The notes under the pieces are model-generated. The model saw nothing but the letters and a program-made list of their open reading frames with translations, was not told where the DNA came from and searched no databases. Below, in pieces: positions 6,857-8,892 of a stretch of DNA of 9,836 bases. The DNA lies in IMG/VR virus record IMGVR_UViG_2541047798_000001; one strand, written 5' to 3'. The position numbers and the translations under genes were made by a program. Source of the stretch: a virus. Lineage: Duplodnaviria; Heunggongvirae; Uroviricota; Caudoviricetes. Each line of letters opens with the position of its first letter. Position 1 is the first letter of the stretch.

Positions 6857-7063
6857 ATGGCTGAAGAGAAAAAAGGCGGTGTTTCGGTGTACATAAGCCC
6901 CGACATCGTGAAGGCGCTCAAGGAACGCCACCAGCAGAACGTAAAAGCAGGCATTGCGGCAGGACTTGATCCGCTGGCGATGGTTGAGCCGTCAACAGGC
7001 TGGCAGGTACGCGCCTATTTACGCGCGGCGCTGGGTATGAATCAGGTTCACGGGGGTGAATAA
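6857..7063 (+). CDS. Hypothetical small protein (68 aa), first gene of the capsid operon
   Basis: SD AGAGGA upstream; stop overlaps the capsid ATG (TAATG). N-terminus (GGVSVYISPDIVKALKERHQQ) is compatible with a ribbon-helix-helix fold, but this is uncertain. Confidence 0.5.
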   Translation: MAEEKKGGVSVYISPDIVKALKERHQQNVKAGIAAGLDPLAMVEPSTGWQVRAYLRAALGMNQVHGGE

Positions 7064-8118
7064 TGACAGTAAAAGCAATAGCACTTAACACTAACCAGCT
7101 TTTTGCGTACCTGAATCGCGAGGATATTGCGGAATTTAAATTCAGTCCGCTGTTTACCGCGCTGTTTTTCCCGAACGTGGCGACATTCAACACACAGGAC
7201 ATCATGTTAGATAACCTGGATATTGAAGAAGTCACTATGTCGGCGTTTTGTTCGCCTATGGTGGGTAGCCAGGTTCAGCGCGATAAAGGGTACGAAACAA
7301 GCATTATTCGCCCTGGCTACATGAAGCCAAAACACGAAATCGATCCATTAAAAACAATAATGCGCATGGCTGGAGAAGATCCAGCACAGCTTAACGACCC
7401 TACCTACCGCCGTATGCGCCTGATTACTGGCAACATGCGCCGCCAGATAAACGCCATTAAAGCGCGCGTGGAATGGCTGGCGGTAAATGCGGTAACGACC
7501 GGAAAAAACATCATTGAGGGCGAAGGCATAGAGCGCTATGAAATCGACTGGAAGATACCGGAAAAAAACATCATAGAGCAGGCCGACGGTAAAAAATGGT
7601 CAGAGCAGGACAAAGACATACACGACCCAATCTATGACATTGAGCTATACGCAGATCAGGCAGGTTGCCCCGCAAACGTCATGATTATGGGCGTTGATGT
7701 ATGGCGCATGTTACGCAGCTTTAAAAAATTCCGTGAACTGTACGATCTCTCCCGTGGTTCAGAATCCGCCGCAGAGCTGGCATGTAAAAACCTGGGCGAA
7801 GTGGTGAGCTTTAAAGGCTATCTTGGTGATCTGGCCCTTATCGTCTATTCCGGCAAATACACTGACAGCGACGGCACAGAAAAATATTTCCTTGAGCCTG
7901 ATTTGCTGGTCCTGGGCAACACCAACAATAAAGGGCTGGTGGCCTATGGTGCGATTATGGAACAGGAAGCGGTAAGAACGGGCGCAACGCAAAACATGTT
8001 TTACCCGAAAAACTGGATTGAGGACGGCGATCCGGCGATTGAGTACGTGCAGACGCACAGCGCACCGCAGCCGGTTCCGGCAGATATTCGCAAATTTGTT
8101 ACCGTCAAAATTGGTTAA
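7063..8118 (+). CDS. Major capsid protein, lambda gpE-like (HK97 fold)
   Basis: 351 aa, similar in length to lambda gpE (341 aa). Conserved blocks versus recalled gpE: FKFSPLFTALFF ~ FKFDPLFLRLFF; GYMKPKHEIDP ~ GYVKPKHEVNP; DPTYRRMR ~ DPAYRRRR; IVYSGKY ~ VVYSGQY; LVLGNT ~ MVLGNT; YPKNWIEDGDPA ~ YPKNWVTTGDPA. SD GGGGGTG precedes the ATG. Confidence 0.85.
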   Translation: MTVKAIALNTNQLFAYLNREDIAEFKFSPLFTALFFPNVATFNTQDIMLDNLDIEEVTMSAFCSPMVGSQVQRDKGYETSIIRPGYMKPKHEIDPLKTIMRMAGEDPAQLNDPTYRRMRLITGNMRRQINAIKARVEWLAVNAVTTGKNIIEGEGIERYEIDWKIPEKNIIEQADGKKWSEQDKDIHDPIYDIELYADQAGCPANVMIMGVDVWRMLRSFKKFRELYDLSRGSESAAELACKNLGEVVSFKGYLGDLALIVYSGKYTDSDGTEKYFLEPDLLVLGNTNNKGLVAYGAIMEQEAVRTGATQNMFYPKNWIEDGDPAIEYVQTHSAPQPVPADIRKFVTVKIG

Positions 8119-8130
8119 CGGGGGGATTCT

Positions 8131-8466
8131 ATGGACACTCCATACATTGAGTTATTTGCAGGCAGTCAGCAGGTATCCACGACGCTGGTACATTTTGCCG
8201 CTGATGCTGGCGTTATTCAGGAATTTACCCCGCTGATGCTGGCGGACAATGGCGAGTTTAAGCCGTGGGATGGTCAGGAATCTGGCAAGGCTGTTTATCT
8301 GACTTCGTACCCCGTGGACACGTCAAAGCAGAAATCAGCACAGTGTTACAAGACGGGGATATTTAATATCGCCGCCGTAAACTGGCCTGAGAGCGCCGAC
8401 ACTGACGCGAAAAAATGCGCCGCCTTTGCGGGTTCTGGCGTATCCGTTCAGCCGCTGGCGCGATAA
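8131..8466 (+). CDS. Head decoration protein, lambda gpD-like
   Basis: 111 aa versus lambda gpD 110 aa. Blocks TPLMLADNGEFKPWDG ~ TPLMLDTSSRKLVAWDG and WPESADTDAKKCAAFAGSGVSV ~ [30 protein letters not shown] upstream. Confidence 0.75.
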   Translation: MDTPYIELFAGSQQVSTTLVHFAADAGVIQEFTPLMLADNGEFKPWDGQESGKAVYLTSYPVDTSKQKSAQCYKTGIFNIAAVNWPESADTDAKKCAAFAGSGVSVQPLAR

Positions 8467-8478
8467 GCAGGGGAAACG

Positions 8479-8892
8479 ATGGCAACGAATGAAAGCATCA
8501 TGGCGCTACCGCTGGCGAGTAAATTTAAAGCAGAAGCGCGGGCAATGGCTGACAGAGGTTTATCAACCTACGAGGCCGTATATCAACTCAACAAACTGGA
8601 AGAACAGGACAAGCCGCGCGCTGATGCGATTATGGCGCTTCATGAACATAACGACTATCAGCCGCTGTTACGTGCAATGGCAAACGTGCCATGTATTAGC
8701 GTCGATAATGCTCGTGAAATCCTGAACATGACCATAGAGCAGGAGCGCCCAAAGGTTGCACCAGAGCTTACCGCAGCCTTTGAAAACTTTATGGACATGC
8801 ACAGCCCGCAAGCCGTATCAGCTGGCATGGCGTACGATGGCAGAAACCAGGGCGATGACGGCGACATCGATCGCATACTGAAAACCATCTGA
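8479..8892 (+). CDS. Hypothetical protein (137 aa), last gene of the capsid operon, adjacent to cos
   Basis: Good spacing and SD; acidic C-terminus; no recognisable family. The position next to cos makes it a candidate packaging-specificity factor, which is inference only. Confidence 0.5.
   Translation: MATNESIMALPLASKFKAEARAMADRGLSTYEAVYQLNKLEEQDKPRADAIMALHEHNDYQPLLRAMANVPCISVDNAREILNMTIEQERPKVAPELTAAFENFMDMHSPQAVSAGMAYDGRNQGDDGDIDRILKTI

Follow-up and report, generated by a model that had tools for sequence, protein, structure and literature searches.

The window analysed here is a 9,836-nucleotide (nt) stretch of viral DNA (IMG/VR record IMGVR_UViG_2541047798_000001), and its gene content and sequence matches make it near certain that it represents an enterobacterial phage-inducible chromosomal island (PICI) of the classical, EcCICFT073-like type. 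The known "capsid" operon of this island type, orthologous to c1498-c1501 of Escherichia coli CFT073, occupies positions 6857-8892. What appears to be new here, judging from sequence comparison, is that the operon encodes a three-part module, in which the capsid protein and the decoration protein are accompanied by a Nu3-type scaffold homologue, and that the satellite shell proteins constitute an old lineage of their own that extends across four genera. The capsid and decoration genes are under strong purifying selection, with ratios of nonsynonymous to synonymous substitution rates (dN/dS) of about 0.1, below that of the single-strand DNA-binding protein (SSB) of the same islands.

The shell proteins were assigned with family profiles, solved structures, and pairwise comparisons. 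The 351-amino-acid (aa) capsid protein matched Pfam Phage_cap_E (PF03864) with an E value of 3.8e-49 over profile positions 14-328 of 329 and PHROG 29 with an E value of 3.5e-107; it shares 43% identity with lambda gpE over 328 aa and matched the lambda gpE structure 7VI9 at E = 4e-81. Residues 1-350 also matched PDB 3BQW (E = 2.5e-229), a 351-aa "putative capsid protein of prophage" that we take to be the CFT073 protein. On the strength of this match, a solved crystal structure exists for the satellite capsid protein family; the entry holds a single deposited chain and is silent on assembly state and partners. The full-length match to the family and to solved gpE structures places the protein in the gpE family (PF03864, HK97 fold). 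The decoration protein (111 aa) scored 64.7 bits against Pfam HDPD (PF02924; E = 1e-17), the cut-off being 29.1 bits, showed 37% identity to lambda gpD and 41% to Gifsy-1 gpD, and matched the solved structures of SHP (PDB 1TD0; E = 6e-13) and gpD (PDB 1C5E; E = 1e-9). Since its score exceeds the Pfam gathering score and the structures of the family are matched as well, it belongs to the gpD/SHP family (PF02924). A preliminary description of this DNA had recognized both genes as gpE- and gpD-like, and the Pfam, PHROG, PDB, and pairwise matches bear this out.

The same description had regarded the operon as lacking a scaffold, and this part does not stand. The fourth gene, orf137, encodes a protein that matched the extreme C-terminal part (positions 494-567 of 583) of PHROG 53, the head maturation protease family, with an E value of 7.3e-10. 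By BLASTP, its residues 49-131 aligned with residues 416-493 of the 501-aa gpC-type protease/scaffold of PhiR12 (37% identity over 83 aa; E = 1e-11), and gpC of Gifsy-1 (E = 1e-8) and gpC of the CFT073 helper prophage (E = 2e-9) were matched, too. BLASTP against lambda gpC alone was nonsignificant, and the relation to lambda is visible solely via 21-type sequences and profiles. When the orf137 family was compared with the Nu3 C-terminal regions profile to profile (hhalign), a probability of 97% and an E value of 1e-10 were obtained. A multiple alignment including lambda Nu3 revealed a common architecture, with one or two copies of a motif (IMAL..EA.G.E...LA..PGMTV..AR.IL) followed by a tail (F-E/D-x-F-M-x-x-H-S-P..V..G) and then a short acidic, hydrophobic end. 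In orf137, the motif copies are found at about residues 7-33 and 51-82, and the tail, FENFMDMHSPQAV, is close to that of the 21-type helper scaffold, FEHFMANHSPAAV. A 141-aa equivalent in a sister subfamily aligns with the last 130 residues of helper gpC. These data indicated that orf137 is a homologue of the C-terminal, scaffold-specific part of Nu3/gp6. In Nu3, the first ~60 residues show strong conservation between lambda and the 21-type gpC proteins, and their position suggests that they belong to the gpC peptidase part; if so, orf137 would cover essentially the whole scaffold-specific portion.

An exhaustive HMMER search with orf137 yielded 8 hits only, and the gpC C-termini fell below library-wide significance. 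The orf137 family is thus very narrow, and its homology to Nu3 is based on the pairwise, PHROG, and profile-profile comparisons. Searches of Pfam, and of PDB by sequence, gave no match, and the AlphaFold2 (AF2) model was all-helical with low confidence (pLDDT 47), unusable for a fold search. Nesting of the C/Nu3 type was not seen, since orf137 is a gene of its own that follows the decoration gene and the island encodes no S49 peptidase. Interactions of lambda Nu3 with E, B, C, and itself have been reported (PMC3224144). Some databases already label an orf137-type protein "head-tail preconnector/connector protein," the name used for gp5/gp6 of phage 21, and we found no mention of the Nu3 homology in the PICI literature searched. 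Natural 93-aa variants of orf137, found among the proteins P0101, P0103, and P0105, are devoid of precisely the segment between the repeats and look like products of recombination between the two repeats.

To see how the module is maintained, its distribution and divergence were analyzed. The operon and its control region were present in 598 of 5426 complete E. coli genomes, being full-length in 594 of the 598. Eight alleles with 82-100% DNA identity were all open and equal in length, save for one 115-aa version of the fourth gene. Over these alleles, dN/dS (NG86) was 0.11 for the capsid protein, 0.09 for the decoration protein, 0.26 for orf137, and 0.29 for orf68, the first gene of the operon; the value for SSB in eight of the islands was 0.19. 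Intact alleles and low dN/dS together indicated that these are functional genes and not relics.

Capsid homologues were examined down to 50% identity, in E. coli, Salmonella, Serratia, and Edwardsiella. Every one of them lies in an int-alpA-primase/helicase island, with a decoration gene after it and no other head gene in the island. In neighbor-joining trees, which held only five phage sequences, the satellite capsid proteins and the satellite decoration proteins of the four genera each formed one clan in 200 of 200 bootstraps. Satellite capsid proteins are 38-47% identical to the sampled phage gpE proteins, which share 60-95% identity among themselves, and none of 50,697 phage genomes encodes a protein above 48% identity to the capsid protein of the window. 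Distances of the capsid and decoration proteins co-vary (r = 0.88; Mantel test, 0/5000). The gene order follows the same division: it is E-then-D in the window and in every related island examined, versus D-then-E in lambda, Gifsy-1, PhiR12, the CFT073 helper prophage, and an Edwardsiella helper prophage, and the preliminary description had rightly pointed out the inversion relative to lambda. One predicted protein of 463 aa, P0141, from a 3.2-kb contig contains Phage_cap_E and HDPD domains together; it could be either a capsid-decoration fusion, which would fit the E-then-D order, or a sequencing or frameshift artifact. In the subfamily with 50-56% capsid-protein identity (E. coli, Salmonella, and Serratia), orf68 is missing and the Nu3-like gene is replaced by an AlpA-like helix-turn-helix gene after the decoration gene (L016, 10402-10746; L019, 10375-10812; L020, 10403-10756).

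That PICIs carry capsid and decoration homologues has been in print since 2018, and in this respect there is nothing new in the operon. Window positions 5757-9001 share 95% DNA identity with EcCICFT073, and the four proteins show 98.5, 95.2, 97.3, and 92.7% identity to c1498 (AAN79967), c1499 (AAN79968), c1500, and c1501, respectively; the capsid protein and c1499 fall in the same 90% cluster, and c1501 is 137 aa long. The products of c1499 and c1500 were described by Fillol-Salom et al. as a putative capsid protein and a head decoration protein, respectively (PMC6092414). In that work, high-frequency transfer of EcCICFT073 itself, with induction and replication by a helper, was demonstrated; deletion of c1499 or c1500 changed neither the interference with lambda nor the transfer by the resident prophage; EcCICFT073 DNA packaged with lambda was all phage sized; induced CFT073 showed no monomer-sized band; and the authors reported that they failed to find a c1499 phenotype (PMC6092414). 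When the genes downstream of the origin were cloned, lambda was inhibited by c1503 (rppA) only, and deletion of c1503 restored lambda plating almost fully (PMC6739421). Replacement of the c1498-c1501 block with cas9 or melA cargo still allowed packaging and transduction by a phi80 helper (PMC10530653, PMC10460865). A review of capsid redirection mentions the EcCICFT073 capsid homologue and its full-size capsids, a paper on helper-embedded PICIs lists a capsid gene in 21 of 29 reference Gram-negative PICIs and reports that PICIs capture helper late genes, and SatelliteFinder counts "capsid morphogenesis" among five core PICI components, thought to modify capsid morphology. The layout, which the preliminary description could not confirm to be undescribed, is in fact described, since the orthologous c1498-c1501 genes are published and the capsid gene is a listed core component. 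Our literature searches returned no later functional study of the c1498-c1501 genes and no treatment of 3BQW in a PICI context. We considered whether the null phenotypes were confounded by a "c1501::tetA" disruption and rejected this, since the primers place tetA right after the c1501 stop codon and upstream of the terminator, which leaves the operon intact.

Inspection of the operon confirmed four open reading frames (ORFs), all on the plus strand (Table 1). The orf68 and capsid genes overlap by 1 base (TAATG), the remaining gaps are 12 nt, and a Shine-Dalgarno sequence precedes each of the four genes. A strong terminator after perC (6625-6642) lies ahead of the operon, and an intrinsic terminator closes it. 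Within the upstream block (6740-6856), which also contains TTGCAA at 6752-6757, a palindrome overlaps a weak -35 element next to a perfect -10 element, and we infer a promoter role for it. This promoter-like block is kept in the E. coli alleles, in the subfamily with 63% capsid-protein identity, and in Salmonella islands, and it is absent from the orf68-less subfamily. A hairpin just upstream of orf68 was considered as a conserved terminator or antitermination target, an idea that is not supported: changes in its outer stem are uncompensated, conservation is confined to the inner CTGGAT/ATCCAG stem, and the hairpin is absent from a sister subfamily.

The first protein of the operon, orf68, is peculiar to satellites. 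It belongs to PHROG 3255, a family with no function assigned, had no match in the 50,697 phage genomes, and has homologues (65% and 48% identity) directly upstream of the capsid gene in three PICI subfamilies. Its AF2 model, of moderate confidence (pLDDT 75), consists of a beta-hairpin and two helices; a Foldseek search of PDB with this model found nothing below E = 1, and a PDB sequence search was empty as well. A relation to gpW, which is also 68 aa long, was considered and rejected for lack of similarity, and no similarity to gpC was detected. Another idea, that orf68 is a ribbon-helix-helix DNA-binding protein, gained no support from Foldseek against PDB. The palindrome/TATAAT block occurs only where orf68 is present, and this co-occurrence suggests the idea that orf68 may regulate itself or the operon.

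Table 1. Features of the window, with coordinates and supporting evidence
Feature	Position	Strand	Evidence and remarks
PICI tyrosine integrase	1..1239	+	Island left end; Pfam Phage_integrase and Arm-DNA-bind_3; adjoins yljB in SCU-172, where it is annotated as integrase
AlpA-family regulator	1649..1858	+	Pfam Phage_AlpA, E = 7.9e-18
DUF927 primase/replication protein	3176..5314	+	Pfam DUF927, E = 1.6e-48; PHROG 1139 (DNA primase), E = 1.6e-190
SSB	5933..6343	+	Pfam SSB, E = 4.2e-17
PerC-family regulator	6354..6602	+	Pfam PerC, E = 3.2e-35; start taken from RefSeq via SCU-172
Promoter-like region	6772..6800	+	Palindrome ATTGCA-N5-TGCAAT (6772-6788) overlapping weak -35 (TTGCAC); perfect -10 TATAAT (6795-6800)
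14-bp palindrome/hairpin and T-run	6798..6829	+	Just upstream of orf68; sequence scan
orf68 (c1498 orthologue, 68 aa)	6857..7063	+	98.5% identical to AAN79967; PHROG 3255
Major capsid protein, lambda gpE family (c1499 orthologue, 351 aa)	7063..8118	+	Pfam Phage_cap_E, PHROG 29, PDB matches
Head decoration protein, gpD/SHP family (c1500 orthologue, 111 aa)	8131..8466	+	Pfam HDPD, PDB matches
orf137 (c1501 orthologue, 137 aa)	8479..8892	+	Stand-alone homologue of Nu3/gp6 scaffold-specific C-terminal region; two internal repeats and conserved tail
Intrinsic terminator closing the operon	8896..8917	+	After last stop codon; 9-bp stem with 5 GC pairs, then T8
cos site	8924..8995	+	Lambda cohesive-end sequence GGGCGGCGACCT at 8955-8966; 43/45 bases = lambda left end; left arm of 72-nt inverted repeat
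Second cos site, inverted	9450..9521	-	Corresponds to second EcCICFT073 cos (PMC6739421)

The remainder of the window is in keeping with the PICI assignment. A terminal integrase, AlpA, and a primase/replication gene are co-oriented on the plus strand, and the Pfam and PHROG matches confirm the int/alpA/primase satellite backbone recognized earlier. The closest genome match was E. coli SCU-172 (98.5% identity, rising to 99.4% across window positions 2330-9836), whose copy of the island, of at most 11.4 kb, sits between yljB/cspD and clpS; attL lies outside the window. Judged on the SCU-172 copy, this is a small island at a chromosomal site in which no portal, protease, large terminase, tail, or lysis gene is found. 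The reported absence of portal, protease, terminase, and tail genes from the window holds, and a contiguous full head module, looked for in the SCU-172 island, was not there. None of the operon proteins matches the Psu, Sid, Delta, or alpha primase families, which speaks against a P4-like satellite. NCBIfam, PADLOC, Rfam, and tRNA scans returned nothing.

In CFT073, the two cos sites flank rppA. Of rppA, the window keeps only ~70 nt from the 3' end (about 9185-9254). Part of the inter-cos segment is inverted relative to CFT073, positions 9001-9189 being the reverse complement of the sequence that follows rppA there, and positions 9256-9449 are AT rich (GC about 0.39) with no credible ORF. At the position of the remnant, sister islands (L006 and L008-L011) encode either RppA (144-146 aa) or a Nu1-like small terminase subunit (TerS), as in strain N10, where the sister island at the same chromosomal site carries a 180-aa Nu1-like TerS (L006, 12040-12582). 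RppA or TerS at one position in near-identical islands argues that the packaging cassette has been swapped. As RppA is required for efficient EcCICFT073 packaging (PMC6739421), the window copy and its SCU-172 twin, which have lost rppA, may transfer poorly or be packaging impaired.

Several islands of this kind lie within the late genes of prophages that are lambda-like or P2-tailed. In L007, L017, L019, and L021, capsid-decoration islands reside inside gene E, the portal gene, or P2-type tail genes, which matches published helper-embedded PICIs, and L021 and L017 represent natural satellite/helper pairs on a single contig each. The CFT073 helper prophage at icd (L005, 17370-50000; L018) has a phage-21/PhiR12-type (lambda/21-type) head module; it lies ~9 kb from EcCICFT073, and the annotation gives the tail gene that follows U as frameshifted. 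The identifiable helpers, namely, the CFT073 prophage and the modules hosting embedded islands, thus carry gpE-type head modules.

Comparison with known systems helps to define the module. EcCICFT073 has the same four genes in the same order and shares with the window the cos sites and a downstream 93-aa ORF; it differs in its site (the phoQ side in CFT073 versus yljB/clpS for the SCU-172 copy), in its replication protein ("DNA primase family" versus a DUF927 primase), and in its intact rppA (c1503), of which the window has the 3' remnant only, in a rearranged inter-cos segment. The C/Nu3-D-E module of lambda, present also in phage 21, Gifsy-1, PhiR12, and CFT073 prophage 4, contains the same families of capsid protein, decoration protein, and scaffold C terminus, with 38-47% capsid and 25-37% decoration identity to the window in global alignment. 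There, the order is scaffold-D-E, with the scaffold nested in the protease gene, versus E-D-scaffold with a stand-alone scaffold gene in the window, whose operon has no portal, protease, terminase, W, FI, or FII and possesses the additional satellite-specific orf68. Ccm of SaPIbov5 is likewise a satellite-encoded homologue of the helper major capsid protein. However, Ccm has no accompanying decoration protein or scaffold homologue, it yields small isometric capsids, and its loss raises helper titer 10^6-10^7 fold, whereas EcCICFT073 with the orthologous genes is associated with full-size heads and their deletion had no effect. CpmB of SaPI1, an alternative internal scaffold that resembles the helper scaffold at its capsid-binding end, is in concept analogous to orf137 with its gpC/Nu3 tail; the two have no sequence relation, and the phage-sized packaged DNA disfavors a size-determining role for orf137. 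Finally, capsid-forming PICIs (cf-PICIs) such as EcCIEDL933 share the int/alpA/rep backbone family and a satellite-encoded capsid protein but make their own capsids with a full set of protease, portal, head-tail connectors, HNH, TerS, and large terminase subunit (TerL), none of which the window has; the island is therefore not a cf-PICI.

What the operon does was then considered against these data. Our best guess, a tentative one with the balance of probability against it, is that the three structural proteins would be a cognate and functional shell kit, made redundant in the laboratory by lambda-like helpers. With a Nu3-like scaffold of its own to steer it, the satellite capsid protein would assemble by itself or together with helper gpE, starting on a portal/protease initiator from a lambda-like helper that would supply the terminase and tail as well. 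The product would be normal-sized lambda-type heads, to be stabilized after packaging by the satellite decoration protein. Lambda gpD binds only to expanded, DNA-filled heads; as a gpD-type protein acts on filled heads only and the decoration gene is retained, it can be argued that the satellite capsid protein reaches filled heads. Likewise, gpE-type helpers and phage-sized packaged DNA favor normal-size heads built on the helper initiator. The benefit would be less dependence on helper E, D, and Nu3, relevant where the helper prophage is defective or a helper-embedded island interrupts head genes. Redundancy of the kit with lambda, phi80, and the CFT073 prophage (prophage 4) would account for the null deletion phenotypes. 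Shell building by the satellite proteins fits the conservation pattern and is not required for transfer with the helpers tested. For the explanation taken as a whole, that is, the EcCICFT073-type identity together with a cognate shell kit, we consider the chances of being right and of being wrong to be even.

A number of points weigh against the shell kit. Deletion of c1499 or c1500 left transfer by the resident prophage unchanged, cargo in place of c1498-c1501 still allowed phi80-mediated transduction, and single cloned genes of the operon had no effect on lambda. The presence of the satellite proteins in particles is a prediction only, as is the fit of the satellite scaffold and capsid protein to the helper portal and protease, which we assume, and the proposed benefit is hypothetical. 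Given an identity of ~45% to helper gpE, the satellite capsid protein may fail to form mixed lattices with it. Some subfamilies have an AlpA-like gene instead of the Nu3-like gene, the orf137 model is of low confidence, and the co-variation of the adjacent capsid and decoration genes could be explained by linkage alone. A stronger version of the shell kit holds that the satellite capsid, decoration, and Nu3-like proteins, perhaps with orf68 as an assembly factor or regulator, make the entire particle shell, with portal, protease, terminase, and tail borrowed from the helper, at least when this helper is a natural 21-type or a defective one. Such a role could have been overlooked because the tests used lambda and phi80, which supply the redundant proteins; still, we consider it rather unlikely. 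If true, it would add a third mode of capsid piracy, intermediate between classical PICIs, whose capsid is all helper derived, and cf-PICIs, whose head is all satellite derived.

The preliminary description had proposed small capsids or poisoning of the helper, and the published EcCICFT073 tests found neither: both roles are contradicted for lambda, and size redirection also for the prophages of CFT073 itself. The operon might nevertheless be an interference module, whose capsid, decoration, and scaffold-like proteins would poison or misdirect head formation in certain gpE-type phages, helper or not, with an effect on lambda that is masked or absent because RppA dominates. Ccm of SaPIbov5 sets a precedent, the resemblance of the orf137 tail to that of 21-type helpers is as expected of a competitor for the same site, and the phages tested were lambda only, plus phi80 and HK97 for the cloned genes. 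On the other hand, neither the c1499 nor the c1500 deletion relieved the interference with lambda, deletion of rppA alone brought lambda back almost fully, and cloned genes apart from c1503 were ineffective. Moreover, strong purifying selection and deep divergence from phage gpE are unlike an arms-race poison, for which a decoration protein of its own would be superfluous, and PADLOC gave no hits; we thus judge this role distinctly unlikely. Size redirection, in which the satellite capsid protein and a short scaffold would yield small heads with the right helper in the manner of Ccm or CpmB, has in its favor that PmCI172, a Pasteurella PICI with a capsid homologue, forms small capsids, that, according to SatelliteFinder, this component is believed to alter capsid morphology, and that orf137 is, by analogy with CpmB, a short stand-alone scaffold. 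It is highly unlikely in view of the entirely phage-sized DNA that EcCICFT073 packaged with lambda and the lack of a monomer-sized band in induced CFT073, all the more so as the operon was intact, by the primers, in the tetA-marked island of those tests.

A nonstructural or conditional role, for example, in particle stability outside the host, in an interaction with host defense, or in regulation via orf68, would agree with a structural role that has so far been predicted only, with the co-occurrence of orf68 and the conserved palindromic promoter region, and with the AlpA-like DNA-binding gene in the operon of another subfamily. We hold it to be unlikely, because positive evidence for it is nil and the capsid protein has the full-length gpE architecture and belongs to a family with an HK97-fold crystal structure. 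That the operon is a captured lambda-like head operon in decay, now functionless, is scarcely credible. This reading could draw on the deletions without phenotype and on the capture of helper late genes by PICIs, but the selection data already contradict it: 594 of 598 genomes have the operon intact, none of the eight alleles is interrupted and dN/dS lies at 0.09-0.29, the proteins form a monophyletic clan spanning four genera, and the E-then-D order is unlike that of any sampled phage.

Taken together, these results raise the question of why a set of shell proteins that looks dispensable in all published tests is retained intact, under strong purifying selection, in satellites of at least four enterobacterial genera, and both the Nu3-type fourth gene and the old lineage of the module sharpen this question. 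The capsid and decoration homologues already serve as a detection marker for the PICI family, and PICI-based delivery vehicles at present discard exactly the c1498-c1501 genes. If it is true that the module builds or co-builds heads, this would bear on the helper range of these islands, on their use of defective prophages, and on the design of such vehicles.

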